From Patellaria atrata CBS 101060 (lineage: Eukaryota), in assembly GCA_010093705.1 (NCBI GenBank), contig MU006099.1, forward strand, positions 372,001-436,000: 64,000 nt of DNA. The letters run 5' to 3'. Both the position numbers and the translations under genes were made by a program. This document shows positions 11,201 through 46,809 of this stretch, piece by piece. The first letter of the stretch is position 1; every line of letters starts with the position of its first letter. Below the pieces are notes generated by a model. That model was not told where the DNA came from and made no database searches. It saw only the letters and a program-made list of their open reading frames with translations.

Positions 11201-11425
11201 GTCTCCATCCATAGAGGTAGAGTTGCTGAAGGGAATCCCTTGGACATCCCAATCTTAGGGGTTTAAAGAAAGAGAGAGAGGGAAGAGGGCGCTATTTATG
11301 CCATGAGAGCTAAGGCCATTGACGCACCTAATCACATAGAGCCGCACATGAACAACCATAAGTCTTGCTCATATTCACATGACCCTATTCATCGACTTGA
11401 TGATGGTATACTACCATCTCATTAG

Positions 11426-13156: not shown

Positions 13157-15519
13157 TGTGGGTGAAGTTCTACAGACAGATGTCAATACTATGATGAAAG
13201 GACTACGGTATTTGTCTGACGAGCTCTAGTAAAAAAGCTTATTAAAGGGATATCACCGATTCATCGGACGTGGTGGTACGGGCGAAATCTGTCTTACGGG
13301 CTGCCGTAGTGTGGCGGCTTTCGACTCCGCGGGTGGCTTGACATGTGGCCGATGCTGGGGTGGCGGAGAATTCTCCGCGTGCCTCAAAAGGCCTTACCAT
13401 AAAGTTAAGCCCAAGGGACCGTCGAAATACGGGAATTATCCCGGTGTTTGTGTCCGGAGCTCTGCTTTGAGATCTGAAGGTTTTTGAGGTGATATAAGGG
13501 GGGATCATGAACGGATTGTAGCGTATCATCTGTGCACGTCTGTGCCCGCGATAATTCTATAGATTTCTATCTACGAAATCTCCTACTAAACGTCCGATTT
13601 TAAATTTTTAAAGTAGTAGAATTTATTCTTCGCTGTAGAGAATACTATATCTCTTTTTAGATTCTTAAAATTCTGACGTCTAGATAGGTTTTACATGGAG
13701 TTAGTGTTTAGTTTCTGATTAGCAGCGCTACAATCTATTCATGAGTCCCTCTTGTATCAAGCTGCTGGATAAGGTACAGAAGTAGGGAAGGGAATAGAAG
13801 ATGGAAAGCCACTTTCGTCGCTCCCTCTTGACAAGAATCCGAATTACTTCATAGGCGCAGTTGCAAGCCATTTGCATCATTTTAACAAAATTCTAGAAGT
13901 TGAAGAGTTGAAGAAATGGTAATTGAGGTCGAGAAGATAAGTCGTAATCAGGCCACTTCCACCAGCGGACCTTTCTGTAAGGAGAAGCATGACGTCGCAC
14001 TTTGTCAAAAATAGTTGTAAACAATCATTGATGAATACGTCATTCATGGATTCTCCAGATTAGAGGAATTGGCAAGCTGCATATGCCCGTCTTTTCGCAA
14101 CATGGCTCCTCAGCTAAAAGACGTCAGAGGCGCCTCGAGAGACCCGATCTGTGTCGGCCCTGTTGGGAAAAACGGTTAACGGAGCTTGAGGCGCAGTCCG
14201 CGGCTCATTTACTAAGGTAGAGCTAGAAATATTCAGGGTCTCTACCTATCGAATATAAAGAATAATAATGTCATGGAAAAGAGCTGTAACTTTGGTATAT
14301 CTATAGGGCTGAATTTACAGTAACTTATTCAAACTCAATGAGAATATAATGTGGTAAATGAATAAAGTAACTGCCATACCATGAAGTTCTTACAGTATTT
14401 CTCCAAATTTCCCTTTTCCAAGAGACCAAGGTACCTAGAACCTGAGTAAGGGATGGTCAATATCGAAAACTGATGATGGCGGGATGCAGAATCTCAATTG
14501 TCCTCTTGGGCTTGTAAAGTATAGTACGTACCATCAAGTGTGGCTTGACTTTCACACCATTTTTTAAGGTTACAGTAACTTACCGTCCCAGACCATGACC
14601 TAGATCGTTTAATCAGACCATAACCATTTCAATACCATTTTGGATACCCTTAAGAGCGTCATCATACGTCGCAAAATTTGCCCGCAACTCTGATGACCAA
14701 CCCCACCGCCTTACAACTTCCAAGCTTCATCACCGTTCCATCGTACTTACCTTATTCTCTGAAGCGTAAGTTTGGCCTCGCAAATACAGTATTGGATAAG
14801 ACCGGGCTTTGTCAACCAGAAAGATACTCCCTGTCTGGCTTCCCCAGGTCCACCTCACCTTCGTCTAGGCTTGACCTAAAAAGTGATCTTCCTAATTAGG
14901 TCCCTGTGACTCCATGACCGGTGATCCGATACTACTCATATTTGCCTTCCTGCGAGCGACCACCTAACCTTAGAAATTCCTCTTCACTCCCAAAACATCA
15001 ATTTCTACACTCCTTATCCCTTTAGGACTTGCTTGCACATACAACGATTGAATAATTTGCGGGCGTTTCCTTTGATTTCCATAGACATCCGCCACCGAGC
15101 TTTTGCAACACATCAGACCCCCCCTCAGGAACACGAAGCTCCTTTCAAATCACGTCTTCTCATATCGTTTTGTAACCCACGTCTGGATATTTCGAGAAAC
15201 CACACTCAGACCATAGAACACATTTTGGCGCATAGCGCACCAAATATGCATTCAACAGACTAGTTGATTCTCACTATCCCTGGCCTTTGAATTTCCGCTA
15301 CATCACAGAGGGGCTGGTGAAGACTCTGAAGACTCCCCGCATTCGAAAGATACTCCTTCACCGTCTCTCCTCCTCCCATACCTGGTTGCACCGGATACTT
15401 TATATTCTTCTAGAACTTGTGGAGTACTTGACAAAGGTCCTTTAGGCACCGTTCGTGCAATTCCTATCAGGAAGATTCCGGCCGTATCACACAGGAGTCT
15501 GGATCAAGAGGTGGAGAAT

Positions 15520-18500
15520 ATGGTACCACCGGGTCCAAGAGAACAAGGGGAGGGAGGTGGAGGGGAAGAATCACAACAAGAAGCTGAGCAGAGTACTGTT
15601 CCAGGTGCAGGTTTGGAATCTCAAAGCACACCAATGGAGTCAGCAGCGGATTCGATTACACCTACTCCACAATCAGTCGCAGTGAACACCACAAGTACAC
15701 GGCAACGGGGACGGTCAATATCAAGTCCGCCGCCGGAAGAAACTCTGCAACTAAGCCCCTCAGCGACCGATCGGGTATTTCCTATCCGCAGTGTCATAAG
15801 TGTTAACCCTACGCCTACACCATCAATGCCACACCGACGCGACCATTCAGAAGGCTACTTCTATAGGCCTACACGACATTCCTACGGCTCCGATACTTCT
15901 CAGGGACGAGCATCTGCAAAGGGTAGTGTTGGGGCTCAGTCTCAAGGCAGAGGGAAAGGGGACGCACCTAAAAAGCCATCACCTACACTAAGACCAAATG
16001 CACCTAGACTTCCTGCTCAAGTCTTCAGTGATATTGCTTCTAGCAAATCCGCAACAGAAAGTGGGGACCAACCCGGCGACGCTCCTCCTTCGGTTGGGGA
16101 CGCTTCATCAGTGAAGAGCACTTTCAGTACTGGTGATGATGCTGGGGGTCTGTATACTGCGCGATTTAAGCATGTCATAACCGATGGAGGTCACATGGTA
16201 ATCACTGGAAGGGACGGTGATTCTTTACAGCGCTGTGAGGATGAACCAATTCATATACCGGGCGCTGTACAAGGATTCGGGCTTCTCATCGCTCTCAAGG
16301 AGGAGTCCGATGGAAAACTCGTCGTACGAATCGCCAGTGAAAATGCGAAGCGCATCATCGGGTACACGCCAAAGCAACTATTTGCACTGGATAGCTTTAC
16401 GGATATCTTGTCAGAAGAGCAGGCCGATAATCTTCTAGATCACGTTGATTTCATTCGAGAAGACGAGAACGACGTACAAGCAAACGGGCCAGAAATCTTT
16501 ACAATGTCCATTCGTCCTCCTAACCGACGTACCCAGAAACTTTGGTGTGCGATGCACACTAACGATAACAATCCAGATCTCGTAATCTGCGAGTTCGAGC
16601 TTGAAGATGACCCTCTGAATCCATTGGTCCCTTCCGCTGAGAACTCTCCAGAAGTACCGGAGGATACACTCAGTAGTAACCCGACCCAGGAAGAGTTGGC
16701 CGAAAGCACTGAAAACCTCAGTCGCCCATTACGGATACTTCGTAGCGCTAGGAGGCGGAAAGGGGAAGCTGCTGCTATGGAAGTATTCAATATTATGTCT
16801 CAAGTGCAGGAACAACTTGGCTCAGCCCCGAGTCTCGAAAAGTTCCTCAAAATATTAGTGGGTGTGGTCAAGGAGTTGACTGGATTTCATAGGGTTATGA
16901 TATATCAGTTCGATCAATCTTTCAACGGAAAAGTTGTGACTGAGCTCGTGGACCCTCGGGCAACGAAAGATCTTTTCAAAGGTCTCAACTTTCCAGCATC
17001 TGATATACCCAAACAAGCAAGAGAACTGTACAAAATTAATAAAGTCCGCTTGCTCTATGACCGGGATCAGGAGACGGCAAGATTGGTTTGTCGAACAGCT
17101 GAAGACCTGGAAACTCCATTAGATCTTACACATGCTTATCTCCGTGCAATGTCTCCTATTCATCTCAAGTACTTAGCTAATATGCATGTGCGATCATCCA
17201 TGTCTATTTCAGTCAACGCATTCAACGAACTTTGGGGCCTTATAGCATGTCACTCGTACGGACCAAAAGGCAGGCGCGTATCTTTTCCAATACGGAAGAT
17301 GTGTCGTCTAGTGGGTGATTCAGCGTCAAGAAACATTGAGCGGTTATCTTATGCCTCCAGGTTACAAGCTAGAAAACTTATAAACACAGTTCCAACTGAA
17401 GCAAATCCTTCTGGGTACATTATTGCTTCGTCAGAGGATCTTTTGAAGCTATTTAATGCTGATTTCGGCCTTTTATCTATCCGAGACGAGACGAAGATTC
17501 TCGGACATATCGAGCAGTCTCAGGAAGCGTTGGCTATGCTCGAGTACCTACGTATGCGGAAACTGACCTCTGTCGTTAACTCCCATGATATAGCCGGCGA
17601 CTTCCCTGATCTAAAATATCCTCCAGGTTTCAAAGAGATTGCTGGGATGCTTTTCGTTCCTCTCTCCGTAGGTGGTTTAGATTTTATCGTCTTCTTCCGC
17701 AAAGGCCAACTAAAAAAGGTCAAATGGGCCGGTAACCCTTATGAAAAATTTATTAGGGAAGGCACTGAAAGTTATTTGGAACCCAGGAAGAGTTTCAAGA
17801 CTTGGAGTGAGATTGTGGTAGGAAAATCCCGTGAATGGACTGAAGAAGAGATAGAAACAGCTGCTGTACTCTGTCTAGTATATGGCAAGTTCATAGAAGT
17901 CTGGAGACAGAAAGAGGCGGTTATCCAGAGTACAGAGCTTACGAGACTGTTACTTGCGAACTCGGCCCATGAAGTACGAACACCTCTGAATGCAATTATC
18001 AACTACCTAGAAATCGCACTGGAAGGCTCCCTTGACATGGAGACAAGAGAGAACCTTGCCAAGTCGCATTCCGCTTCGAAATCTCTGATATATGTTATCA
18101 ATGATCTTTTGGATCTCACCAAAACGGAAGAAGGGGGAGAACTCGTCAAAGGGGAAGTCTTCGACTTGAGAGCCACACTCAAAGAGGCAACTGATATGTT
18201 CGTCCAGGACGCTAAGCGCAAAGGTATCGAATATTCTGTTAAGGAACACGAAGGACTTCCCCAATCGGTCATTGGCGATCAAAGAAAAGTACGGCAGGCA
18301 ATTTCGAATATTGTGGCAAACGCAATCCAACATACACTTACAGGTTCCGTCGCTGTGGAAATGTACTGCGTTTCTTGGAACGATCGACACGTCGAAGTGG
18401 AGCTCGCCGTGCAAGATACCGGAAAAGGCATGAATACTCGCCAGACCGATTCATTATTCCGAGACCTTGAGCAGGTGCAGTCAGAAGCTAATCTGCTGGA

Positions 18501-20086
18501 TCGATCTGCTCCCAAACCCCTCCCGGAAAAAGGGAAAGAAGCAGGAGCCCGTACCCTGGGCCTTGGTTTGGCAGTTGTGGCTAGGATTGTTCGTAACATG
18601 AATGGACAGTTACGCCTGAAATCCGAGGAAGGAAAAGGTTCTCGCTTCATTATCCAGTTTCCTTTCGATTTACCAGAAGGCGAAGAAGATCGCGAAGGCG
18701 AAACAAGCGTTCCCAGCTCCTCTCATGCCTCGATCGCACCGCAACCACCTGAGGCTGAGGGTGAAGTTACCCTCATAGCTCGGGACGAAGAAAGGAGCAC
18801 GCCTTCAAAACTAACACGGAGAGAAAGCGGCGATAGCCTCGAAAGCAGAAATAGTCTACGAAGTAACAAGAGCAGTGCTGCCGCCAGCGCCCACAGTGCT
18901 AAAAGCGACCTCAATCGCTTGATTGGAGCTATGCAGGAGACTTATGGCTCTGAAGTGAATCTACACCCTTCCCCGCGAAGTAGCTGGAGCGCAAAATCGC
19001 ATAAGCCGAGACTCGAGCGACGGCTTAGCCATGGAGCTGGTCTTCATTCGTCCCCGATACGAACGCGTGCGAGAAGTGTTGGAAATGCCTCCGCGGATCA
19101 ACCGCCATATGAAAGATCGACGAAACCGATGACGCCCGGGTTAGTGGAAATTAACTCTCAGGGCGTACCCCTGACGGCGGTCAAGATGCCGGATGATGGA
19201 TATTTCGAAAGAAAAAAACCCCTCGCAACGAGCTCTTCGGTGTTGGGAGAGGTGGAAGAACGCGCGGACCACATGATCGAAGCGACGAGTTTCGAGCACA
19301 TGCATGTCCTCGTTGCGGAGGACGATCCGGTGAATTCCAGGATCATGAGGAAGAGGCTTGAGAAAGCGGGGCACGAGCCGTACGTTACGAGTAACGGCGA
19401 GGAGTGCGCGACTATATATGCGGAGAAATCGGGGCTGTTTGATGTCGTGTTGATGGATATTCAGGTGAGTTTATCGTCCTGAGGAGGGATAACTCCTTCC
19501 TCTTCCTCTTTCCCTGGATATCAAGCGCGAGAATTGCTTGCTGATGAGGATATATGTACGCCAGATGCCAATCGTAGACGGCCTAACATCCACCCGTATG
19601 ATCCGCACCCTCGAAACCTCAACACCGCCGCCGCGCCTCTCGACGCGCGCTTCGCTCAACGGTCGCGTCCCCATCATCGCTGTCTCCGCCACCCTCGTCG
19701 AAAAAGATAGACAGATGTATATAGACGCCGGCTTCGACGGGTGGATCCTCAAGCCGGTCTCGTTCCCGCGGCTCGCGGAGCTGATGAGGGGGATTGTTGA
19801 TAAAGGGATGAGGGAGGAGAGTGTGTATAGTGGCGGGGATTGGGAGAAAGGGGGATGGTTTCATAGGGGGAAGAAGAGTGGAAGTGACGTTGATACTGGC
19901 CTGGTGGGGGGGATACCGGGTTTGCCCGATCGAGATGATAATGGGCCTTTGGAGGAGGCGAGGAGGGTTGGGGAGATGAGGGAGAGTGTGGATGCCGCGG
20001 AGACGAAGAGGGAGGAGGGTCTGAGGGATGTGGATGATGACGAGGTGGGAGAGAAGACGCCGGTGATGAGTCCGGAGCCGATATGA
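15520..20086 (+). CDS. fphA: Fungal phytochrome (PAS-GAF-PHY-HisKA-HATPase-REC hybrid histidine kinase), ~1488 aa; exons 15520-19464, 19565-20086
   Basis: Bilin-binding Cys context RCEDEPIHIPGAVQ, GAF motifs FPASDIP and LRAMSPIHLKYLANM, PHY tongue LEPRKSF, H-box SAHEVRTPLNAI, N/G boxes (NAIQHT, DTGKG, GLGLAVV). The receiver DVVLMDIQ|MP is joined by a 100-nt GTGAGT..CAG intron. Confidence 0.96.
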
Positions 20087-27481: not shown

Positions 27482-28460
27482 NNNNNNNNNNNNNNNNNNN
27501 NNNNNNNNNNNNNNNNNNNNNNNNNNNNNNNNNNNNNNNNNNNNNNNNNNNNNNNNNNNNNNNNNNNNNNNNNNNNNNNNNNNNNNNNNNNNNNNNNNNN
27601 NNNNNNNNNNNNNNNNNNNNNNNNNNNNNNNNNNNNNNNNNNNNNNNNNNNNNNNNNNNNNNNNNNNNNNNNNNNNNNNNNNNNNNNNNNNNNNNNNNNN
27701 NNNNNNNNNNNNNNNNNNNNNNNNNNNNNNNNNNNNNNNNNNNNNNNNNNNNNNNNNNNNNNNNNNNNNNNNNNNNNNNNNNNNNNNNNNNNNNNNNNNN
27801 NNNNNNNNNNNNNNNNNNNNNNNNNNNNNNNNNNNNNNNNNNNNNNNNNNNNNNNNNNNNNNNNNNNNNNNNNNNNNNNNNNNNNNNNNNNNNNNNNNNN
27901 NNNNNNNNNNNNNNNNNNNNNNNNNNNNNNNNNNNNNNNNNNNNNNNNNNNNNNNNNNNNNNNNNNNNNNNNNNNNNNNNNNNNNNNNNNNNNNNNNNNN
28001 NNNNNNNNNNNNNNNNNNNNNNNNNNNNNNNNNNNNNNNNNNNNNNNNNNNNNNNNNNNNNNNNNNNNNNNNNNNNNNNNNNNNNNNNNNNNNNNNNNNN
28101 NNNNNNNNNNNNNNNNNNNNNNNNNNNNNNNNNNNNNNNNNNNNNNNNNNNNNNNNNNNNNNNNNNNNNNNNNNNNNNNNNNNNNNNNNNNNNNNNNNNN
28201 NNNNNNNNNNNNNNNNNNNNNNNNNNNNNNNNNNNNNNNNNNNNNNNNNNNNNNNNNNNNNNNNNNNNNNNNNNNNNNNNNNNNNNNNNNNNNNNNNNNN
28301 NNNNNNNNNNNNNNNNNNNNNNNNNNNNNNNNNNNNNNNNNNNNNNNNNNNNNNNNNNNNNNNNNNNNNNNNNNNNNNNNNNNNNNNNNNNNNNNNNNNN
28401 NNNNNNNNNNNNNNNNNNNNNNNNNNNNNNNNNNNNNNNNNNNNNNNNNNNNNNNNNNNN
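27482..28460. other. Assembly gap (N run); probably hides the HSE1 promoter and first exon
   Basis: Run of N; HSE1 coding sequence resumes at a splice acceptor just after it. Confidence 0.99.
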
Positions 28461-28567
28461 NATCGAAAGCTATGGAAGTTGTACGCCACCAAGCTTAGGT
28501 CGTCGCCGGAACAAAATGCTCCAAGAAGTTCTTGATGGAGAGTTCTGGACGCTAACTTTTTGAATAG

Positions 28568-32113: not shown

Positions 32114-33915
32114 TGTCAGCTGTCAGCCATGGAGTAGTATGGAGCACTAAAAGTCTATCTTCAAAAGTCATCTGTTTCGTCCTCAACCGACTCCACTATC
32201 TCAACAGATATCTCAAAGACTATTAGCTAATATTGAGATTTGGATATGTGTTCTCGGTAGCTCTTCAATATATATAGACGTTCCTTCCGTAGATAGATAG
32301 AAATCAAGCGATTATCTTGATTTTTCAGTACCCTCACGTCTGAGAGTTATGAGCCCGGTTTGCACTAATGCTTGAAGATACGTATGTCTATTGATCAACT
32401 TTTGAATTTTGATCTCTCTTAGGGCTCCTTTTTAGTGGTGATATAACTTAACCCTATTTGCCCAAATCTTGATCAAATATCTCCTTTCTTTCGATCAGTA
32501 GATGCTCGTTTTAGCCACGACTACTATGGACCAAGATGTCGTCTACACGACGAACAACAAACTACACCCAGGCGATACTAAACACCCACTCAGATTGGCA
32601 TAGGTGGATTGGCGTCATCAGGGGAAAAGCGATTGATGAGGAGATCTGGAACTATATCAACCCGGACAAATCCACCCCAGCTCGTGTACTGATTCCGAAT
32701 ATCGAGGAAGCTAAAAATCCTCTTATTTTGAGGGAGTATTCGGATAAACGACGATTTATGAGAGAAATCAACAATCTAGTCTACGAGACTATTGCCCGTG
32801 CGTTATATCGCCTATATCAGTAACTGTTCTGATCTCCACGATCGTCTCGTCAAGTTGAAAGAGAGACTGAAGCCGAATACTCATGCGACCCATGTGGAAA
32901 TAACGAGCAAATTAAGACAGCTGAAATCGAGTATTGGGAAAAGCAATATCGACAACTGGCTCAACAGCTTTGAGCTCGTTTATATGGAAGCAAAAACGCT
33001 TGAACACTCCTCCCCAGACGCCAGCTTCTTTGAATTCGAATTCTTGAGCTGTCTCAAAGTCAAAGATCCAGCCTGGGTATCGTTCAGAGAAGGCCAACTG
33101 GAACTAGCCATTGAAAACAACGAATTGACTCCAAAGGTGCCTCAATTGATATCAGCTTATGAAAATTATAGACGACATATCGAAGCCACAGGAGGAGATC
33201 CAGATCAGCACCAAGAGACAGCTTTTGCTACGTTTCAGGGGAACTCAAATGAGCCAAAAGCTCAAAATCATGCTTCCCAAAGCTTCTAAAGCTCTTAGTC
33301 GAAATGGAAGGGTGCCAACTGTTTCTGTGGCCAAAAGCACCAGTTCCACACCTACGTATCCATCAATCAAGCTATCAAGAGAGGCTCTGATTCGTCAGAA
33401 GCAAGGCAAAAAGAGGTAGTTAAAGCCATTGAGGAAGCACCAGAAAGGAAGAAAAGGATCATTGAAAATATCCGAGCTAGAGCGAACAAAGACAAGCCTG
33501 AAACGACACCACATACCTCCAAAGGTGGGGACCCTAAAGGAAGAAAAAGGGCTTATTTATGAAGATAGCAGCCGATAAGCCGTTCAAATTCATGAAATCG
33601 TTTATGCTCGACGGAGGCTCTGACGTCCATATTTACAACAATCCCGAGCTTTTTCACGTCGAACGAGTGGAACCAGGCCTGACAGTCGGTGTGGGACTTG
33701 GTACAGCTCCAGTGGATGCTATAGGTAGCTTTGAAGTGCCTATTTCGACACCAAATGGACTAGGAACGTTCATTCTAAGAGATGCCTATCTGGTGCCCAC
33801 CTTTGCGACCTCACTGATATCAGCTTCTAGAGCAGAGGCCAAGGGGTTCTTTCATAACGCTCGAAAACGTGTTATTGAAAATACCGAGGGAGAAAGGGGT
33901 AGCGTGAGGGAGTAG
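32114..33915 (+). mobile_element. Truncated, frameshifted Ty1/copia LTR-retrotransposon relic (probable 5' LTR, PBS, gag, protease; no integrase/RT)
   Basis: GTTATGAGCCC at 32346-32356 resembles the fungal copia primer-binding site. Gag-like N-terminus ILNTHSDWHRWIGVI..IWNYINP, a broken Cys/His knuckle (CFCGQKH ~33317) and an aspartic-protease-like FMLDGGSDVHIYN are split over several frames. The LTR 5' boundary is uncertain. Confidence 0.75.
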
Positions 33916-34456
33916 GGGTATATAACATCGTTTCCCCTTTCCTTCTTCTATTTTCCATCTTCTTCTCTATGTGAGAGTAAGGTAGAGATAATCACATTTG
34001 GACGATATTGATTGATGATGATTGGGAAGGAGTTAGAAAACCTTCCATTTGGGAAACACGGAAGAAGCGTGAAATTGGAGACTTGCGCTTACCCGAATTG
34101 GAAAGGTAAAGAGACAAACTGGTTCAAATGGGGTGTGATCGTAGATTTTAGGTAGCGGCGATGAGGGCGGGTATTGGGGGACGAGAGTAATGCCAAGTAT
34201 CACCGTCGTTATTGACCACTGGTCCTACTCCGGATTCTGTTGTAGTTGAATTTGTTAAGGTGGGAGCCTGAGACCTGAGACCACGAGTCTCCGTCCAAAA
34301 TAAAAGGAACATCTACGTCATATTTCATTCCCAATCTCAGGTTTTGGTTCCTAAAAGTCTCTTTCCTAGCGAACAGATTCTGTCTTCTCGAATATAACCT
34401 ACAACCACCTAAGCATCAAAAATCAGTGCCAGAAAAGAACACAAAGAACAAATGAT

Positions 34457-34592
34457 AAAAAAAAAGTTGCAAAATTAAAAACAGTTCCCCCCGCCGAAGC
34501 GGGCGTACATCTGCCCTCCTCCCGTTGGGGAGGCTCGGTGTTATACATTTAAAGGATGGGACATACGTACATTACTATTCGGTTATGGCCCC
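34457..34592 (-). ncRNA. Candidate Pol III structured RNA / SINE-like element, copy B (degenerate head)
   Basis: Minus strand reads GGGGCCA-TAACCGAATAG (A-box-like, 2 mismatches) ... CCGAGC, a GC hairpin, then GCAGATGTAC-GCCCGC TTCG GCGGGG-GGAACTGTTTTT and a T9 run. A TATA-like TACATATAAG lies ~30 nt upstream. The 3' motif is shared with the element at 39825-39981. Confidence 0.5.
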
Positions 34593-35308
34593 GAGGTGAT
34601 GGATGTTCACGCAGGTGGTGCTTATATGTAAACGCGCCGCTGTCACGTGGGTGCGGGATAAAACTCTTTTATACCTTGATCTAGTTATGCATCACTGTGC
34701 AGACTTGTGCAGTTGATAGGGGATAGGGGAATATATCTTCTCCCGATTTTTCCTCCCGTCGCTTCTTACCCATTTCTTCCTTCTCCTTTAAGATTGGAAA
34801 GCAGGTTGAGTGGGTATATGGTCCGCGGAAGTTTTATCCTTGGAACTGGCCATCACATTTGGAAAACCATTCTCAAGAACTAAGTGCGTTATTCTAGGAA
34901 GGGGAGTTTACAGGGCTTTTTTATGGAATTTCAGACGTAAGAGCATGGTAGTCATAATGATGACGAATATCAAGGGGTTGGGGTGATTAGAGGATTAGGC
35001 AATGGTAATGAAGAGTACTATCTTTGTAATCAGCATCATTTACTCCTATGTCTCCTGCTATAATGATGTGGATAGTAACACTCCAGAGAGGACAAATATT
35101 CCGACCCAATACACCTCCTCCACCATTGCACTTTCTTCTTTCTTATCCTCCCACGCCGCGTATCTCCTCGATAATTCCGCAGTCCCGACTTTAGGTCCTA
35201 GGAGAGGGAAAAGAATATTTCCTACTATTGGAAAGTATGAGTGTGTGAGGTCAAGTGTAGAGTTGATGTATTGTGTGTAGGAGGAACTAGAGGGGACAAG
35301 CATATATA

Positions 35309-37121
35309 ACGTGCCGCATCGGTCAGTGGCCACAATCAGTCAGTGGCCACACCCCACTAAACCAACCGCGCTTTTTAGCTAATAGCGCTATAACAACAAA
35401 ATTGATTAAGCTAGAAATTAAGATAGAGATTCCTTAGATAGTAGTACATTGACGCCTGTTATAACCTTGGATATAGCACTTTGAGCATGTTGGTGGTGCG
35501 CGCTGGCGCGTAGTAGAGCCCTCGCTCGCCACCACCTCTGGTACCACATTATCCAGCTGCTCTACTAGCTGCTAGCCTGCCTGCGCCTGTAAAGCTCCTC
35601 CGCGAGCAATATACCTACGGCGGATATCCTGCTTCTGTCTACGGCGTTAAGATGCAGCTCGTAGCTCAGTAACCTCTCTAGTAAGGAGCGCAGTCTGAGC
35701 TAGTGCCATATGGCAGCTTTTAATAACTTGGTTAACTGCCTAGCTTGTAGGGCTCTGTAAGTTGCGCTGGAGAAGCTACTTAATAAGGTGAGCCTGCTGC
35801 TCAAGCTGAGTAGTAGTATGAGGTGTCTCTGCTGTCCAGGGCTCTCCGTGTGAGGTTGATGGAGGTGATGGAGTCTTTTTAATAACCGTTAGCGATGATA
35901 GTATACGCTGTGGATCAGCTGGCACGAGGCCTATAGCCTGGAAACCACTTCTAATTGTCTGCTCTATGAACACTATAGGCCGTGCCTCTCTATAGAGTAG
36001 TAGGAAGTCGAGCTTGTCAATATAGTGGATACCCTGCCGAGCTAGCTCCTGTACACCCTGTCCATATACTCGCTTGAGAGGAGAGAAGCAGCTGACGTCA
36101 AGCGGCTAGAGAAGGTGTGACGTATATACAGGCATATAAAGGGTAACTATCCTATTCTCTAGATAAAAGGTGTCGAATTCTGGTGTTATATGGCTACTAT
36201 GGCCGTCAACGATAAGTAATCGATAGGTACCGACTATACGCGCCCTTGTAGAGCTATTAAAGTGCTGTAGCCAGGCGAAACCAAGCTGATCAGTCGTCTA
36301 GCCATTATCACTGACTGCTAGCATCCAGTTGGTAGGTAGGTCTTGGTACCAGCTTGCCTGGTGGACCTTGCCTGCGAAGATAATAAAGGGTGGAATCGCC
36401 CATCCAGACGCGTTAATACATTCAATAGCTGTGACCCACTCGCGATTGCCTGGCTGTATAACTGCTCGCCGACCTATTGTATCTGAGCTTGTAATGACTT
36501 TTGATGTTGCTATAACCCCCATCATAAACCCAGTCTCGTCGAAATTGTACGTATCTTCATCAAGAATGCCGTATAATAGGCGCGTTACCTTAACACGCTT
36601 AAACCACGCGTTAATTGTCTCTAGATTCTCGCACCTGGCACGCTATGAGTGGAATCGACGATTCCACTTTGTCTGTAGCTCTGGCTGAGCCTTGATAAAT
36701 CGATTGACCCAGCATTTCCCGACTAGCTGGGGGGGAGTTGTCTGGCCGCGCGCAGCTAGTAGATGATCTGCCATCCGCCGTACGTCGATTATCTATGGTG
36801 GAAATCCGCGTCGGTCGAGTTCTAGTATCCACTGTACTAGAGACTGCTCCTCTAGTTGGTGTAGCTTTCGTTTCTGGGCATTGGTCGTAGCTTAGGGGAG
36901 GATACCATGGACGCGTCGGCGTAGCGTGGTTCGGGGGACGTTATATACTGCTGCAGCCTTTTTATAGCTTAAAATTTGCTTATTCTGAATTGCCTGCTTT
37001 GATAGAGCTAGTCTACCTTCCTTCTGGAGCTGCTGGGCGCTGTGTTGTAGTGGCATCGCGGGTTTGGTGGAAGACGTGTCGCGATTTTGGTGGGGTGTGG
37101 CCACTGACCGATGCGGCACGT
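35309..37121 (-). mobile_element. Fot1/pogo (Tc1-mariner superfamily) DNA transposon, ~1.81 kb, mutated in a RIP-like pattern
   Basis: TIRs ACGTGCCGCATCGGTCAGTGGCCACA at 35309 and the reverse complement ending at 37121. TA target-site duplication on both sides. Internal transposase remnants. Confidence 0.93.
35435..37056 (-). pseudogene. Fot1-type DDE transposase pseudogene
   Basis: MPLQHSAQQLQKEGRL..YNVPRTTLRRR (HTH), NFDETGFMMG, QPGNREWVTAIECI and DGH motifs. Many TAA/TAG stops at positions that look like former CAA/CAG codons. The C-terminal knuckle reads CSKCYIQGY versus CSNCHIQGH in the neighbouring copy. Confidence 0.9.
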
Positions 37122-37237
37122 TACCCGACTGAGTGCTTAGTCAGGTCTGATACCTAACGTGCTTTACCAGTCAGTGGGACACACCAGTCAGTGGGACATC
37201 CCACCAAAACCACCCCACGTCTTCAACAAAATCAACA

Positions 37238-38866
37238 ATGCCACTAACACAGAACCTTCAGAAGCTCCGGCAAGAAGGTAGATTACTTATTGCTACTAAG
37301 TCGCTTCAAGAAAACAGAATTTCAAGTGTCCGGAAGGCCGCCGGATTGTACGATGTTCCAAAGTCTACTCTCCATCGTCGCGTACATGGCATAACACCTC
37401 AGAGCGTGTCTAATTCGCAAAAACAAAAGCTAAAGCTATCTGAGCAGCAGGCGCTCGTAGAATGGGTCCTAGATCTCGACCGACGCGGATTTCCGCCCCA
37501 TATCATCGACGTACGACGAATGGCAGACCATTTACTCGCGGCACGCGGCCAGAATCCTCCTCCCACACCCGTTGGTAAGAACTGGGTATGCCGCTTTATC
37601 AACAACCAGCCAGACCTACAGACAAAATGGAATAGGAAGTTCCATTCTCAACGCGCGAAATGCGAAGATCGAGACATATTTCGCGAGTGGTATGGGCGTG
37701 TAAACGAGACGCGCCAGAAGTATGGCATCCTAGACGAAGATAGCTACAACTTTGACGAGACTGGATTTATGATGGGTGTATCTGCGACATCAAAAGTCGT
37801 TACAAGCTCTGATACTATAGGCCGAGCAATTCTCATACAACCAGGCAATCGCGAATGGTCAACGGTGATTGAATGTATTAATGCCACCGGGTGGGCAATC
37901 CCGCCCTTCGTTATCCTTCCAGGAAAGCTCCACCAGTCAAGCTGGTATCAGGATCTACCCGGTAACTGGATGCTCGCTGTTAGCGATAATGGCTGGACAA
38001 CAAATAAGTTAGGATTCGAATGGATTAAGCACTTTGACAACTGTACAAAGTCTTATACAAAGGGGATCTACCGTCTACTTATACTTGACGGTCATGGTAG
38101 CCACGCAACGCCTGAATTTGACCAATACTGTATGGAAAATAAGATTATTACCCTCTGCATGCCGTCGCATACGTCANNNNNNNNNNNNNNNNNNNNNNNN
38201 NNNNNNNNNNNNNNNNNNNNNNNNNNNNNNNNNNNNNNNNNNNNNNNNNNNNNNNNNNNNNNNNNNNNNNNNNNNNNNNNNNNNNNNNNNNNNNNNNNNN
38301 NNNNNNNNNNNNNNNNNNNNNNNNNNNNNNNNNNNNNNNNNNNNNNNNNNNNNNNNNNNNNNNNNNNNNNNNNNNNNNNNNNNNNNNNNNNNNNNNNNNN
38401 NNNNNNNNNNNNNNNNNNNNNNNNNNNNNNNNNNNNNNNNNNNNNNNNNNNNNNNNNNNNNNNNNNNNNNNNNNNNNNNNNNNNNNNNNNNNNNNNNNNN
38501 NNNNNNNNNNNNNNNNNNNNNNNNNNNNNNNNNNNNNNNNNNNNNNNNNNNNNNNNNNNNNNNNNNNNNNNNNNNNNNNNNNNNNNNNNNNNNNNNNNNN
38601 NNNNNNNNNNNNNNNNNNNNNNNNNNNNNNNNNNNNNNNNNNNNNNNNNNNNNNNNNNNNNNNNNNNNNNNNNNNNNNNNNNNNNNNNNNNNNNNNNNNN
38701 NNNNNNNNNNNNNNNNNNNNNNNNNNNNNNNNNNNNNNNNNNNNNNNNNNNNNNNNACCAGAACTGGGCTGGTCAGACGCGACAGCGAGCAGCACCAACG
38801 TGCTCTAACTGCCATATCCAAGGCCACACAAGGCGTCAATGTACTAGTGTCTCAAGTAGCTCCTAA
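37238..38866 (+). CDS. Fot1-type transposase (HTH-psq, HTH-CENPB, DDE_1, C-terminal CCHC knuckle), interrupted by an assembly gap
   Basis: No stops in the sequenced parts. Motifs YDVPKSTLHRR, GKNWVCRF, YNFDETGF, LLILDGHGSH, CSNCHIQGHTRRQC. Confidence 0.85.
   Translation: MPLTQNLQKLRQEGRLLIATKSLQENRISSVRKAAGLYDVPKSTLHRRVHGITPQSVSNSQKQKLKLSEQQALVEWVLDLDRRGFPPHIIDVRRMADHLLAARGQNPPPTPVGKNWVCRFINNQPDLQTKWNRKFHSQRAKCEDRDIFREWYGRVNETRQKYGILDEDSYNFDETGFMMGVSATSKVVTSSDTIGRAILIQPGNREWSTVIECINATGWAIPPFVILPGKLHQSSWYQDLPGNWMLAVSDNGWTTNKLGFEWIKHFDNCTKSYTKGIYRLLILDGHGSHATPEFDQYCMENKIITLCMPSHTSXXXXXXXXXXXXXXXXXXXXXXXXXXXXXXXXXXXXXXXXXXXXXXXXXXXXXXXXXXXXXXXXXXXXXXXXXXXXXXXXXXXXXXXXXXXXXXXXXXXXXXXXXXXXXXXXXXXXXXXXXXXXXXXXXXXXXXXXXXXXXXXXXXXXXXXXXXXXXXXXXXXXXXXXXXXXXXXXXXXXXXXXXXXXXXXXXXQNWAGQTRQRAAPTCSNCHIQGHTRRQCTSVSSSS
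38177..38756. other. Assembly gap (N run) inside the transposase
   Basis: Run of N. Confidence 0.99.
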
Positions 38867-39824
38867 GTATAATTTTATTTGAATATATTTTGTTGTAGTG
38901 GAGTAATTGTATGAAAACGCTGGTTGATCTTGGTGGGGTGTCCCACTGAGTGGTGTGTCCCACTGACTGGTAAAGCACGTTACCTTTAATTTGATATCCG
39001 CAACTCAAAAACAAAACAGGGGCCATTTTCTTGGTGCCTCCCTTTTGCTTTGTTGCCCAACAGACAATTCTGTGAGAGCTTGGAAAATAACGCGATCAAG
39101 AGCAAGCGGCTTTTATACGGTCCTGGGTTGCGAGACCGGCGGCAATATTCCTTCTGCGGGCAGTGATCGCAGTGATCAAATCTCCATTGGTGTTTTCAAG
39201 GATGTCCTATTATCGTATCCATTTCATCAACAGATTATAGACTGTAGAGTATAAGTTGGACGTTTAAGAATTATGAAAGTTATCTCCTTGAGCGTTTCTC
39301 TACCAGAAAAGTGAGCAGGAGCCTCATCGCGTTATCTCTCCAGCCGTATACATATCGACGGTCTGGGTTTTGACCGTTTGCATCTTAGGGGTTGTTTATA
39401 GCTATCCTGCCGTGGATCCACTTGAATAGGGGAGAAGCGCAGACTGCCAGATCTGGTTTCACCTAATCGTCTCAGCTATTTTGCTAGGTGAATTTCGTTT
39501 CTTATTATTGTTTACTCGTTTTGGGCTATCTCCTTTTTGAACCATGCTGTAAGTTCATGTCTGATCCTTTCTTGACTATAAACTATCCAAATTGCTGGAC
39601 GATGAGGAATAGAGGTCGGTTCATTGCAGAGATCTCGGTTGAAGTAATAGTAATCGGTCGAGAAAGGCGATATTGTCAGGAAATGGCTTGAACATTAGTC
39701 ATGTCCCAAATAGGAGCTTCCACCTAACATTCTTTCAGTCAAACGGGGCAAACAAGGTACATATATCCCGCCCAACCACTTGAAGCTTATCAACAAAAGA
39801 ATCGTCACTGCTTTCCATAACCCA

Positions 39825-39981
39825 GGGCCTGTGGCCTAGTGGTGGGAAAGTCCCCACCACACCGATCAGGCCAAATACGGCAACTGGTCCTGGGGTCGAT
39901 TCCTTCGGGCCCCGAGCTGGGGGCAGCAGATGTACCACGTCCTCTTCGGAGAGCGTGGGAACTGTTTTGCCATTTTTTTTT
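39825..39981 (+). ncRNA. Candidate Pol III structured RNA / tRNA-derived SINE-like element, copy A
   Basis: Perfect A box TGGCCTAGTGG (39832-39842) and near-consensus B box GGGTCGATTCC (39893-39903). Acceptor-like stem GGGCCTG/CGGGCCC and inserted hairpin GTGGTGGG..CCCACCAC. These are followed by GCAGATGTAC-CACGTCCTC TTCG GAGAGCGTG-GGAACTGTTTT and a T9 terminator-like run. It does not fold as a canonical tRNA. Confidence 0.6.
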
Positions 39982-42521: not shown

Positions 42522-43662
42522 TGAACTGGTTACGGCTCCGATACGCGAACTAGAGGTCTCACGTTGACCAAACTAATGCTTACGAGTACAATTATACTTA
42601 TATATGCAATATGTTTCATGGTGAATCCTACCTTCGGACTTTGTAGTAGACATACAACCACCAACAAAGCTCGCTTTCTCCCATCCGTTTGTCAGATGGT
42701 AGACCAGAAGAGCAGTTCCTATTTGGAGCGGTGCCTGCGGTACAGCACAAGAATAAGAAGAACTGGGTAGGTGATTTCACAGAACTCATTTCTCAGATAA
42801 AGCAGGAGGGTACTGGCGGTTTTGCTAGCTGCACCGGAATTTTCTGACCTCACTAAACGATGTCAGCTACAGTCAAAATTTTACTAGCTACAGCTACTTT
42901 TCCCTGGTAACAACTCCTCTATATAAGATAGCTCTGGAAAAGTTGAAGTAATATCTCAATTGCGCGAAAGTTGTCAAAAGTCTCTCAAACACACACTGAA
43001 CTCTATATCAGCCCAATTCTTTATTCTAGCATTGACTAAGCTGCGGTCAGGCCCCAAATCCACTTATTATTCGAACAATACATCCAGCATCCAGCCTTTT
43101 AACTAACCGTCTCAAATGCACGATACCACAACTATGCTTCCTTCCGGAAGCCCCCGGCAACGTGGCATTCGCTGACCGAGCAACCCTAGAACGCCACGAT
43201 CCTTTCCGTGTGCAGAAACAGGTCTAGCGTAAAAAAAAAGTACATTTCCCTAAAGAGGTAAATGCCAGAATCTTTGCCTACTTCCACCCCAAGTTACCGA
43301 CATAACCCATCAGCCGCACACAAGGCGACCATTTCAGGCCCACCAACAAGGTACGAGTTGACGCACCTCCAAATCCTGAGTCAAAGACGCTATAATTAGT
43401 AATCACGAAGTCGATTCGTTGATACCACTCGATGTTGCTTATTCAGCCACGCATATGCGGGTGAAGAAAGATAAAAGTGTTAAATATGAATAGACTATAA
43501 CCCAACCCATAAGTACCGATTCAACCCCCTTCCTCGCTCGTTCTTCTCTCTCTCCTCTTCCCTTCCCATAACACGTATGAAGCCCCACCTCAGCCAGTGA
43601 ATAAAAACCCCCAATTCTTGATTCGCCTAAAAATAAAAAATCCCCCAAACACCACATCCACC

Positions 43663-46600
43663 ATGACCCCCAAAGAGCCCAAATCCCCCATTCCCACCAC
43701 AATCCCTACCCTCCTCCACGCCCGCCTCCTCTCCGCCCCCTCCTCCCCCGCCATCCTCACCCCCACCCTCACCCTCACGACCCACCAGCTCTGGACCATC
43801 TCAACGCACATCCGCACCCGCATCCCCATTACACCAGGCACGGTAGTCGTGCTCTGCATGCGCCGGTCGTGGCGGCTCGTCGCGTGCATGCTTGCGGTCT
43901 TGCGCGCGGGCGCGGCGTATGTGGTTCTTGACCCTGAGGAACCGGCGTTCAGGAATATGGGGGTGGTTGCGGAGTTGGGGGACCGGAGGGGGGTGGTTGT
44001 GGGTGAGAGGGATGTGGGGTATCTTGGGAAGGTGTGGGATGTGGATTGCGTTGTGGGTGTTGGGGGGGAGGTGAGGTGGGCTGGTGAGGTTGAGGAGGAG
44101 AGTGGGGTGAGGAATGGGGTGGAGAATAGGGTGCGAAATGGAGTGCGAAATGGAATGCAAAATGGAGTGGATAATGGAGTGAAGGACGCAGCGGAGCCAA
44201 ATGATCTAGCATATCTAGTTTTCACGTCCGGATCCACGGGACGGCCGAAGGGCGTTATGGTCACCCATACCGCAGCATGTTCTGGTATATCGTATTTCTC
44301 GCTCGCCGGGAAGACACGCTGGTTGCTTTTCTTCAATCCGGGGTCGAGCGCGGCGCAGAGGGCCGTATGGGGGACCCTAATCCACGGAGGGTGTCTCTGC
44401 ATCGCGGGTAAAGAGGATGTCACGGCGTCGTTGGCGAGGACGATATGCGATATGGAAATCGACGGCATCGGGCTTACGCCGTCGGCGCTTTCGTTGATGA
44501 GTCCGGACGAGGTACGCGGCTTGAAGATGATTATCATGGTGGGCGAACGGGTGGATGGGAAGATTGTGGAGACTTGGGCGGGCAGGGTTGAGTTGTGGAA
44601 TTTTTATGGGTTGAGTGAGTGTACGCAGATGAATTTTGGGAAGAGATTGCTACCTGGTGGTGATCCTACATGTGTGGGCCGTCCGTCGGATACAGTGTCG
44701 GTCATGATTGTGGATAGTGACAGTAAGGCGATTGTGTCCAAAGGGAACGTGGGAGAAATATGTCTCACCGGCCCTCAACTATCGAAGGGTTACTGGGGCC
44801 GAGAGAACGAGACGGCGGAAAGATTCGTCAATAACCCTTTCAACGAGGGACAGATGCTGAAAACTGGAGATCTGGGATATGAAGATGAGGATGGGATACA
44901 TGTTGTAGGAAGAGACGACTTTCAGGTGAAAGTAGATGGTCAGAAAGTCGCGCCAGAGGAAGTCTCTGCACAGCTCGCAAACTATCCCGGAATAAAGGCA
45001 TGTTCTGTGTTTGGTTGCCAATTGGGCGGCTGGCCCGCTCTTGTTGCTGCTATTGCGACAGATGATTTTGGGTCCTGGGATAATACGAGCCAAAGGGTCC
45101 AATCAATACGGTCTTTCCTAACTGAGAGGATACCATCTTACATGATGCCGCATTATTGGTTACCGCGACATTCGATGCCCTTCGGACATAATGACAAGAT
45201 CGATATCCAAACCCTTCGCAAAGAAGCTGAACAGCTAGGAGCTGAGGGATTGAGAAAGCTCATACAAGGAGCCGATACCCGATTCGCAGGTTTATCTGAG
45301 ACCGAAGAGGTTATACGAGCCTCTTGGGCCAGTGTACTTGGAATACCAAAGGAATCTATCGGGCCTCAACATTCCTTTTCGCTTCTAGGTGGAACCTCTT
45401 TGCAAGCGTTGAGGGTCATAGGAAAACTACGGACAGAAGGAATTCTCCTCGAGTTACGCGATATATTCTTGACTGGTAATCTTTCTGAGGCAGCTCTAAG
45501 AAGTCGGCGGATTGAAGACACAGCGGACAAGGGAGATGTTGAAGTTGTACCATTCTCCTTGATACCCGAGGAACCTCTTCGTCAAGGACTTCAAAGTCAA
45601 GGGGGTGTAGAAGACGCATTTCCCGCCACACCCGTGCAATTGATGTTACTGATGGCGAGTCTTCGTGGACATAAAGGATACGTCTACCAAAGGAAGTGGG
45701 ATATGACCGGAATAAATCCACAGATGCTTAAAGAAGCGTTTCGAACTGTTTTCCAAGAGAGCCCTACGCTCCGATCGGTATTCATTCCAGGGAAGGCCGG
45801 TTTCACCCAATTGGTACGCACGGATTTGGAGCTCCCCTGGGAAGAAGACAGCTCCAGTACAATCGAGGAATTTGTGAAAAGCGACTTAGAAGAACAAGTC
45901 GTACTTGGAGAGCTTATGTGGAGAGTAACGTACGTGACTAAAGCCAATGTCCTTGTGGTAACAATGCACCACTCTCTTTTCGATTTCTGGTCACATCGAT
46001 TTCTGTACCAAGACGTTGCAAACGCATACTTTGGCTTCTCTCACAACCCACGACCTCCATTCCAAAGGTTCGTACGTTGGTTGCAAGAATTAGAATCCGA
46101 AGAATCAGCGACTTTCTGGGAAGACTACAAAAAAAAGGTCAGACCCACACTGATCAACACAGAAAAGACAGAAGAATACACTCACGTATTCAAACCCGCT
46201 CCCCCCGCCCTTGCTACCTCAATGACAGATATTGGCCTCACGATCGCCTCGGTCGTATACGCAGCTTGGGCGATAACCATGGGCAAAGCAACCGCACAAG
46301 ACGCCGTATGTTTCGGCACGCTGTTCGCATCTCGCGATATCCCAGTCCAAGACATCGCGCGCATGGACGGTCCTGTCTTCACACTCGCCGCTCAGGCGAT
46401 CGAACTACCCGGTAGCAAAACCGTCCGGGAAATAGCAACTTCCATCTATGATGGTCAATGGGACTTGACCGCCCATTCCCAATGGCGGCTGAAACAGTTT
46501 GTCAGGGAAGGCGTACAGCCACCGGTATTTGATACGATGGTTGATATTCTGATCGCTGACCATGGTGAGGAGGATGTCGTGGCGAAGCGGTTGTTCAAGC

Positions 46601-46809
46601 GATTCGGGGCTAGACCGGCGTGGGATACGACGTTTACGGCGCTGTATTTGATGGAAGACGATGGGGAGTTTAGTTTTGCGATTACTTCATTACTGCCGGA
46701 GAGCAAGGTAAGACAGTTGTTGGATACTGTCATTGCAGTCATCCATGCCATTTTGGATGTAGACGACCCTGCTATCCGACTGGAAGATCTCTTGAGCCGT
46801 CTTGATTGA
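43663..46809 (+). CDS. Single-module NRPS (A-T-C), 1048 aa
   Basis: A-domain motifs LAYLVFTSGSTGRPKG, NFYGLSE, GEICLTG, KTGDLG, GRDDFQVKVDG, NDKID; carrier site FSLLGGTSL; condensation motif MHHSLFD. First ATG at 43663. Confidence 0.92.
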   Translation: MTPKEPKSPIPTTIPTLLHARLLSAPSSPAILTPTLTLTTHQLWTISTHIRTRIPITPGTVVVLCMRRSWRLVACMLAVLRAGAAYVVLDPEEPAFRNMGVVAELGDRRGVVVGERDVGYLGKVWDVDCVVGVGGEVRWAGEVEEESGVRNGVENRVRNGVRNGMQNGVDNGVKDAAEPNDLAYLVFTSGSTGRPKGVMVTHTAACSGISYFSLAGKTRWLLFFNPGSSAAQRAVWGTLIHGGCLCIAGKEDVTASLARTICDMEIDGIGLTPSALSLMSPDEVRGLKMIIMVGERVDGKIVETWAGRVELWNFYGLSECTQMNFGKRLLPGGDPTCVGRPSDTVSVMIVDSDSKAIVSKGNVGEICLTGPQLSKGYWGRENETAERFVNNPFNEGQMLKTGDLGYEDEDGIHVVGRDDFQVKVDGQKVAPEEVSAQLANYPGIKACSVFGCQLGGWPALVAAIATDDFGSWDNTSQRVQSIRSFLTERIPSYMMPHYWLPRHSMPFGHNDKIDIQTLRKEAEQLGAEGLRKLIQGADTRFAGLSETEEVIRASWASVLGIPKESIGPQHSFSLLGGTSLQALRVIGKLRTEGILLELRDIFLTGNLSEAALRSRRIEDTADKGDVEVVPFSLIPEEPLRQGLQSQGGVEDAFPATPVQLMLLMASLRGHKGYVYQRKWDMTGINPQMLKEAFRTVFQESPTLRSVFIPGKAGFTQLVRTDLELPWEEDSSSTIEEFVKSDLEEQVVLGELMWRVTYVTKANVLVVTMHHSLFDFWSHRFLYQDVANAYFGFSHNPRPPFQRFVRWLQELESEESATFWEDYKKKVRPTLINTEKTEEYTHVFKPAPPALATSMTDIGLTIASVVYAAWAITMGKATAQDAVCFGTLFASRDIPVQDIARMDGPVFTLAAQAIELPGSKTVREIATSIYDGQWDLTAHSQWRLKQFVREGVQPPVFDTMVDILIADHGEEDVVAKRLFKRFGARPAWDTTFTALYLMEDDGEFSFAITSLLPESKVRQLLDTVIAVIHAILDVDDPAIRLEDLLSRLD

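Follow-up and report, generated by a model that had tools for sequence, protein, structure and literature searches.

Our analysis of a 64-kb stretch of the genome of Patellaria atrata CBS 101060 (assembly GCA_010093705.1, contig MU006099.1, positions 372,001 to 436,000, hereafter the window, whose own numbering is used throughout) concerns two short elements, copy B on the minus strand near 34.5 kb and copy A on the plus strand near 39.9 kb. Their 3' modules are homologous and have one architecture, with different apical helices. Copy B also has close relatives elsewhere in the genome, some of them carrying a piece that it lacks. With moderate confidence, we regard copy B as a genuine, damaged member of a small, low-copy family of elements of the kind that RNA polymerase III (Pol III) transcribes.

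Two copies of one module in the window

A first-pass annotation of the sequence had described the minus-strand copy as a second occurrence of a motif, with identical flanks around a different hairpin. The flanks are there letter for letter, as are the C(TTCG)G cap, the terminal T run and the upstream CCGAGC (34538-34533, minus strand). The parts of the two copies are:

34478-34513, minus: combined pattern of flanks and hairpin, copy B
34514-34505, minus: conserved 5' flank GCAGATGTAC (10 nucleotides, nt), copy B
directly after GCAGATGTAC, minus: hairpin letters of copy B, G-CCCGC-TTCG-GCGGG-GG
34488-34478, minus: 3' flank GGAACTGTTTT, copy B
34478-34489, minus: conserved 3' flank GGGAACTGTTTT (12 nt), whose T's open the first T-run, copy B
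34481-34477, minus: first T-run of copy B (T5), followed by AATTTTGCAAC and then by T9
34457-34465, minus: second T-run of copy B (T9), after TTTTGCAAC
39927-39968, plus: combined pattern, copy A
39926-39935, plus: 5' flank GCAGATGTAC, copy A
between the flanks, plus: hairpin letters of copy A, CACGTCCTC-TTCG-GAGAGCGTG
39958-39968, plus: 3' flank GGAACTGTTTT, copy A
39973-39981, plus: T9 after GCCA, the likely terminator of copy A

The pattern CAGATGTAC-hairpin-GGAACTGTTTT has two matches in the 64 kb and none in 100 dinucleotide-preserving shuffles, and the motif thus passed the comparison with shuffled sequence that the annotation had proposed. A covariance model based solely on copy A and the structure predicted for that copy was used to search the whole window, without filters. 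This search found copy B (34515-34472) at 31.0 bits (E 2.3e-6, with rough calibration), and the ten other matches at E<=10 all scored at most 13.3 bits. No third copy appeared in the window. When both copies were compared with the window by low-stringency BLAST, a single match stood out, the reciprocal 43-nt one between them (E 0.015-0.016). Given the pattern counts in real and shuffled sequence and the covariance-model scores, we conclude that the window holds exactly two related copies. A relaxed descriptor, with flanks of at most one mismatch and a five-pair hairpin, had two matches in the window and one to seven in 30 shuffles. Copy A escaped it through the C.A mismatch in its hairpin, and this search is hence uninformative.

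The 3' ends are arranged alike. Copy B has T5 and then T9, copy A has T4 and then T9, and the T9 follows TTTTGCCA in copy A and TTTTGCAAC in copy B. A scan for bacterial-type terminators had neither module among its predictions.

Fold of the module

The predicted structures comprise:

34472-34519, minus: 3' module of copy B, with basal helix, internal loop, outer C-G pair, apical helix CCCGC/GCGGG and UUCG
39921-39975, plus: 3' module of copy A, same architecture, with a 9-pair apical helix
34518-34533, minus: small hairpin before the module in copy B, CCUCCC-CAAC-GGGAGG

Both modules are unusually stable when folded alone. Copy B (34474-34519) reaches -18.6 kcal/mol (z -3.15, none of 200 shuffles as stable) and copy A (39921-39975) -22.7 kcal/mol (z -3.20, one of 200). 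In the predicted folds of both copies, a purine tract pairs with CUG and the first U's of the T-run to form the basal helix (GAGGGCAG with CUGUUUUU in copy B, GGCAGCAG with CUGU..UGCC in copy A). Above it lies an internal loop of five by three nucleotides that is identical in A and B (AUGUA in the 5' arm and GAA in the 3' arm), followed in both copies by a closing C-G pair, the apical helix and the C(UUCG)G cap. The apical helix has five pairs in copy B and nine in copy A, the latter including one C.A mismatch and one U.G pair. The first-pass annotation had drawn the stem of copy B as GCCCGC/GCGGGG; five of these pairs and the outer C-G do fold, but the base pair of the drawing is a G.G mismatch. 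The basal helix of copy B contains four G.U pairs, and copy A has G.U and U.G pairs. Since these would be A.C oppositions on the other strand, the structure is strand-specific and makes sense only as an RNA ending in the T-runs. The small hairpin before the module of copy B has a counterpart in copy A, CCCC-GAGCU-GGGG.

The internal loop looks like a known platform. The AUGUA/GAA loop next to a C-G pair resembles the loop-E or sarcin-ricin consensus, in which AGUA faces GAA, a G is bulged and non-Watson-Crick pairs form. As in the modules, GUA and GAA face each other between two helices in the eukaryotic 5S arm formed by helix V, loop E and helix IV and in helix 95 of 25S/28S ribosomal RNA (rRNA), and a C-G pair closes the hairpin side in these RNAs as well. 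The flanking letters of the modules, GUAC...GGAAC.GUU, are also similar to those of the large-subunit sarcin-ricin stem. On the other hand, both modules have UGUA and an extra A in the place of AGUA, and an extended helix capped by UUCG where the known motif has a GAGA loop or 5S helix IV.

The annotation had further taken the stem as co-varying, and hence as a sign of selection on RNA structure. This part found no statistical support. The two modules were aligned by fitting them to the copy-A model, as MAFFT misaligned them, and in this alignment 96% of the cells pair. In two pairs both partners differ (A-U/C-G and U-A/G-C), but 128 of 500 shuffles equal that count. With so many shuffles matching it and just two hairpin types to compare, there is no statistical evidence of selection or covariation. 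The combination of exact flanks, a replaced helix and the same cap is nonetheless suggestive.

Relatives of copy B and its deletion

Relatives were sought in the contigs of two runs of one sample and one study (X1 and X2), which behave as DNA, compared at 80% likeness with positions 34000-38176. This contig comparison revealed 2-5 further loci of the same organism that are at least 80% like copy B over approximately 34470-34660, in line with the earlier suggestion that the elements define a family. At position 34503, two (X1) or five (X2) other contigs overlap, each at about single-copy depth. Word depth is around 320 (X1) and 487 (X2) in the single-copy flanks, rises to 1106 and 1995 in the bin 34420-34559 and to 630 and 1273 in the bin 34560-34699, and is single-copy again from 34700. 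The pogo transposons in the compared stretch served as positive control and show depths of 1000-16000. The window's own locus has contig breaks at 34473-34499; an exact match between this stretch and a second locus would produce such breaks. Because the relatives share sequence only to about 34471, the T9 of copy B (34457-34465) may lie outside the unit.

Three relatives, approximately 94-95% like copy B, could be followed by depth. Between 34503 and 34629 we listed 19 differing positions, which are the best-supported ones; there are 36 further substitutions and 6 further indels besides them. Few as these events are, the three variants listed for the hairpin would all leave the RNA strand able to pair. 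C34503->U and C34505->U each stand opposite a G, and with G34504->C the G.G mismatch becomes a pair. Upstream, one relative retains the TATA-like ACATATAAG, next to which it has one change and an insertion of 3 nt.

The remaining parts of copy B, upstream of its module, are:

34629-34621, minus: TATA-like ACATATAAG, about 30 nt before GGGGCC, as the first-pass annotation had noted
34587-34596, minus: putative 5' end CCUCGGGGCC, placed by the spacing of about 30 nt from the TATA-like box
34592-34587, minus: GGGGCC, whose pairing partner is present only in the relatives
34533-34534, minus: deletion point, where relatives carry 14 nt
34639-34678, minus: upstream block CAAGGTA..TATCCCGC..CCAC, with weak similarity to 39751-39787 of copy A

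All three reconstructable relatives have 14-17 nt that are absent from copy B. In two of them 14 nt follow 34533, reading GCCCCGAGTTCGAG or GCCCCGGGTTTGAG in RNA sense, and the third has 17 nt distributed across 34537-34543. Within the extra piece are a B-box-like GTTCGAGCC and a GGCCCC(GAG) able to pair with the 5' (CUC)GGGGCC, and its GGCCCCGAG is also found at the end of the head of copy A. As the three relatives carry what copy B is missing, the latter is a deletion-damaged member; it apparently lost the piece by slippage between two CCGAG repeats. The annotation had seen in the 5' part of copy B a decayed tRNA-like head. The damage is real, at 14-17 nt lost relative to the relatives, but no transfer RNA (tRNA) is recognised in copy B, either by ARAGORN in the window or by Rfam at E<=10, and it has no pair of A and B boxes.

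At 34659/34660, a TA immediately upstream of the TATCCCGC block, the sequence of one relative runs into the end of a pogo element (34659 to 37152, on opposite strands). A second family member thus also adjoins a pogo element.

The tRNA-like head of copy A

Upstream of its module, copy A has a head with the outline of a tRNA:

39825-39913, plus: tRNA-like head, with a 7-bp acceptor-like stem and A and B boxes
39832-39842, plus: A box TGGCCTAGTGG, perfect against the consensus
39893-39903, plus: B-box-like GGGTCGATTCC, one change from the consensus

Measured against these consensuses, a pair of A and B boxes occurs once in the window and in none of 100 shuffles; this pair, in copy A, is 50 nt apart, inside the 30-60 nt of type 2 Pol III units. 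For the A box alone, 0.84 occurrences are expected in the window. Folded whole, copy A is more stable than expected (z -2.97). It is drawn as a tRNA by ARAGORN only at a threshold of 80%, at which the program makes 99 calls in the window, and the Rfam tRNA model has no match to it at E<=10. The head also contains a perfect 8-bp hairpin, GUGGUGGG-AAAGUC-CCCACCAC, at 39839-39860. A likeness of its GGGAAAGUCCCC to the CR-I element of RNase P/MRP RNA was considered and rejected, as these letters form the loop of the 8-bp hairpin and no Rfam model matches.

Outside the 3' module, the two copies cannot be aligned. The score of their bodies is reached by 241 of 300 shuffles and that of the downstream sequences by 209 of 300. 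The upstream block scores 26, which is reached by 26 of 300 shuffles (18 of 300 in an earlier scoring) and is not significant alone.

A candidate Pol III family

These observations can be assembled into a model, in which we infer function from the letters and their predicted folds. The family would consist of this locus, its 2-5 close relatives and the more distant copy A, with elements of approximately 130-200 nt. The transcript would begin close to GGGGCC, some 30 nt downstream of the TATA-like box, and end in the T-run. Its last 45-55 nt would form a rod made, in order, of the basal helix, the invariant 5x3 loop, a helix of free sequence and length, and the C(UUCG)G cap. The conserved loop and the U-tail would most likely constitute a module that binds proteins and protects the 3' end, for example with La on the U-tail and a loop-specific protein, and the apical helix would be a mere stable spacer. 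Transcription of copy A would be driven by the A and B boxes of its tRNA-like head, and a cut by RNase P or RNase Z at that head could release the module as an RNA of about 65 nt. Copy B, on the model, lost with the 14 nt between its CCGAG repeats both the B-box-like motif and the strand that closes the 5' domain, and is probably weakly transcribed or dead for this reason.

The coherence of copy A as a Pol III unit, with box pair, acceptor-like stem and T9, speaks for this reading of copy B and its family, but a number of observations weigh against it. Transcription of the elements is a prediction from their sequence, and the T4-T5 runs may be insufficient to stop fungal Pol III. The locus lies inside a transposon-rich island. 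Copy A has no TATA box at -30, and copy B folded whole is no more stable than its shuffles (z -0.34). The count of covarying pairs in two sequences has no statistical power, and invariance of the module among the relatives cannot be claimed, since the best-supported differences alone were listed. The loop-E likeness is a pattern resemblance in which one letter differs and one is extra relative to the AGUA/GAA consensus. As the bodies of A and B are unalignable outside the module, a single family with two types of head is our interpretation of the shared module. Finally, in one relative the likeness to copy B is about as high over 34597-34659, upstream of where the transcript is presumed to start, as it is within the element, which would fit DNA duplication, an earlier start or promoter conservation equally well.

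A stronger version of the same idea, which we put forward only tentatively, is that the elements represent an undescribed family of structured Pol III RNAs of filamentous fungi, with interchangeable heads on a terminator-linked, loop-E-like rod that would bind a dedicated protein and that, in the tRNA-headed form, tRNA-processing enzymes would release as an RNA of about 65 nt. The heads would be tRNA-like or consist of a TATA box plus a B box, and the small RNA could be a component of a ribonucleoprotein or a small-RNA precursor. To our knowledge, hardly any Pol III transcripts of filamentous fungi have been described beyond tRNA, 5S, U6, signal recognition particle (SRP), RNase P and MRP RNAs, and apart from the microRNA-like RNAs (milRNAs) of Neurospora almost none of these extra transcripts has a defined structure. 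If expressed, the elements would provide a compact and easily testable new RNA, whose conserved internal loop could be used as bait for its protein. They would also offer two natural promoter designs and a case of one RNA module common to heads of different origin. For the present, their value is that of a well-delimited candidate RNA element.

Comparison with known systems

The closest working analogues, as candidate likenesses, are the Pol III milRNA loci of Neurospora, followed by the SINE-like elements (SINE, short interspersed element) of Aspergillus. According to PMC3547838, milR-1 to milR-4 of Neurospora crassa are hairpin small RNAs made by Pol III from loci with a T cluster and TATA-like or A/B boxes, milR-4 is freed from a tRNA precursor by RNase Z, and murine gammaherpesvirus 68 has tRNA-miRNA units. 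In these systems as here, a short hairpin directly precedes a T cluster and the promoter is TATA-like or made of A and B boxes. Copy A further resembles milR-4 and the viral units, as described there, in having a tRNA-shaped head upstream, whose 3' processing would free the hairpin. There are also differences from what that text describes. The hairpin here is short, with arms of about 20 nt, and it is the internal loop that is conserved, not a 20-nt mature strand as in the Neurospora milRs. Unlike in milR-4 and the viral units, the head of copy A is not a real tRNA, and release of the hairpin is a prediction here.

AfuSINE2 and AfuSINE3, as described in PMC5063351, are likewise elements of a filamentous fungus, 140-493 bp long and present in 1-5 copies. 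Their head resembles a small RNA and contains Pol III boxes, it is joined to a 3' part of unrelated sequence, and some copies are degraded. By eye, the 13 elements printed there have no sequence likeness to ours, which end in a terminator-linked hairpin and not in a repeat or LINE-like tail (LINE, long interspersed element).

The use of a tRNA-like sequence as promoter for another RNA has precedents. The yeast genes RPR1 and SNR52 are Pol III genes with a tRNA-like A/B-box leader. Yarrowia lipolytica has tRNA-5S rRNA dicistrons (PMC2566860). In both cases, as in copy A, a tRNA or tRNA-like unit serves as internal promoter, and the RNA encoded downstream of it ends at a T-run. The downstream RNA is there RNase P RNA, a small nucleolar RNA or 5S rRNA, whereas here it is a predicted hairpin of about 65 nt, and copy B has no such tRNA-like head.

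Searches against known RNAs, metagenomes and the literature

No match was found in the whole window with Rfam 15 at the gathering threshold. At E<=10, searches of 6 kb and of two 200-nt stretches returned only unrelated weak matches (4.8-20 bits), and in those stretches none to tRNA, 5S, SRP, small nuclear RNA, RNase P/MRP or ribozymes. The weak matches, all far below gathering and rejected, included mir-654, CLRN1-AS1, SNORA63, istR, rsmX and tmRNA, as well as mir-345, SAM-III, rli59, Acido-1 and RF_site9. ARAGORN, with introns allowed or not, found no tRNA gene in the 64 kb. We also considered and rejected U6, U4, the SRP Alu domain, RNase P/MRP CR-I and the hammerhead, which have no Rfam match and whose defining letters are absent.

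The exact-flank pattern occurs at 41 loci in metagenome contigs. None of the 41 has the full hairpin with a UUCG-type cap, and we therefore take these loci as chance or unrelated occurrences. Full-text literature searches with the motif strings gave unrelated matches among those listed, none of them fungal. The motifs are absent from the main text of two fungal small-RNA catalogues and from the supplements of PMC3890542, a match in the supplements of PMC2377427 remaining possible. The literature search returned no description of such an element, although one may exist in print.

Alternative explanations

The elements might be SINE-like retroposons, selfish copies with differing heads (tRNA-like in A, derived from another small RNA in B) and one LINE-derived 3' tail, whose hairpin and conserved loop would be recognised by the reverse transcriptase of the partner LINE. 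We consider this unlikely, but it accounts for much of what was found. Different heads share one tail, copy B is damaged, both window copies lie inside a transposon island, and the multiple copies expected of such elements exist as dispersed, low-copy relatives about 94-95% alike with single-copy flanks. A weak, T-rich direct repeat of 7 nt, TTTTATC, flanks copy B (34663-34657 and 34460-34454), but it overlaps the block shared with copy A, which itself has no flanking repeat other than ATTCTT far from its ends. There is a precedent in Aspergillus fumigatus, where PMC5063351 describes low-copy (1-5) SINE-like elements related to tRNA or 5S, 140-493 bp in length. Yet the elements end in a Pol III terminator and not in poly(A) or a simple repeat, and there is neither a LINE reverse transcriptase among the 27 open reading frames scanned nor a third tail copy in the window. 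Moreover, the similarity of one relative extends 65 nt upstream of the presumed start, TATA-like box included, which speaks against retrocopying because upstream DNA would be missing from a copy of a transcript that begins at GGGGCC. If SINE-like nevertheless, they would add a terminator-ended type of tail to the small catalogue of fungal SINEs.

It is rather improbable that we are dealing with an inert, untranscribed relic, left from an old repeat or from the end of a transposon, whose palindrome is kept complementary by template switching within quasi-palindromes and gene conversion and not through selection on an RNA. The transposon-rich setting, the deletion in the head of copy B, the covariation count without statistical support and the lack of matches to known RNA families would all fit. 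Such a relic would not readily explain why the flanks are exact over 10 and 12 nt when the rest of A and B has diverged beyond alignment, nor why the basal helix, which needs G.U pairs and the T-run, can form from one strand only, as RNA. The coherence of copy A as a Pol III unit also argues against it. Among the DNA-level possibilities that were rejected, a Helitron 3' end, which would have a GC hairpin about 10 nt ahead of a terminal CTRR where homology stops, fails because the letters are CTGT and not CTRR, and because the relatives are identical to about 34471, 12 nt beyond the CTG. A copy of A mutated by repeat-induced point mutation is rejected since the hairpin differences are not transitions. 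The two copies are not the terminal inverted repeats of one big transposon, as two complete pogo elements with their own ends lie between them.

Filamentous fungi often have dispersed 5S genes and pseudogenes, and the B-type copies might be far-diverged derivatives of 5S rRNA genes, which we find very improbable. By eye, the order of a TATA-like box at -30, GGCCATAACC, TCCCATCC and GTATAAC blocks followed by a loop-E arm recalls such a gene, and that arm can be likened to the 5S loop E-helix IV arm. There are also short colinear blocks, again by eye, in common with the 5S heads of Table 1 in PMC5063351. But the Rfam 5S model (RF00001) has no match at gathering in the window, nor at E<=10 on 201 nt, and the 5' GGGGCC of the relatives can pair with an internal GGCCCC and not with the 3' end as in helix I. 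Chance similarity of the two occurrences is refuted: single flanks with at most one mismatch are indeed not rare (6 matches where 2.9 are expected for one, 4 where 1.5 are expected for the other), but the absence of the full pattern from all 100 shuffles, the covariance-model E of about 2e-6 and the further genomic relatives leave no room for it.

Genomic surroundings

Two transposons separate the copies:

35307-37123: degenerate pogo/Tc5-type transposon, between copies B and A, in opposite orientation to its neighbour
37155-38982: pogo/Tc5-type transposon with a long DDE_1/HTH_Tnp_Tc5/HTH_psq frame, part of it masked as N

Without these two elements, A and B would be divergent neighbours about 1.5 kb apart. 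Both have their own terminal inverted repeats, which contain a 17-nt tandem subrepeat, and contig depths suggest several to tens of pogo copies per genome. The differences among these copies are mostly transitions (44 of the 55 kinds listed, X1). Runs of N occupy 27482-28461 (980 bases) and 38177-38756 (580 bases); the latter lies inside the right pogo element and causes its apparent drop in GC content. Just downstream of copy B there is a copia-like fragment (32515-33915) with gag-like and Pol_BBD/aspartic-protease-like frames.

On the other side, a short-chain dehydrogenase gene starts approximately 350 nt after copy A and is followed by a gene similar to nonribosomal peptide synthetases (43513-46809; AMP-binding, PP-binding and Condensation domains), with a cytochrome P450 gene further on (58860-60026). 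These genes may belong to a secondary-metabolite region next to the transposon island. Elsewhere in the window, 15268-20083 encodes a sensor kinase of the fungal phytochrome type (PAS_2, GAF, PHY, HisKA, HATPase_c and Response_reg domains), apparently split by an intron before its receiver domain.

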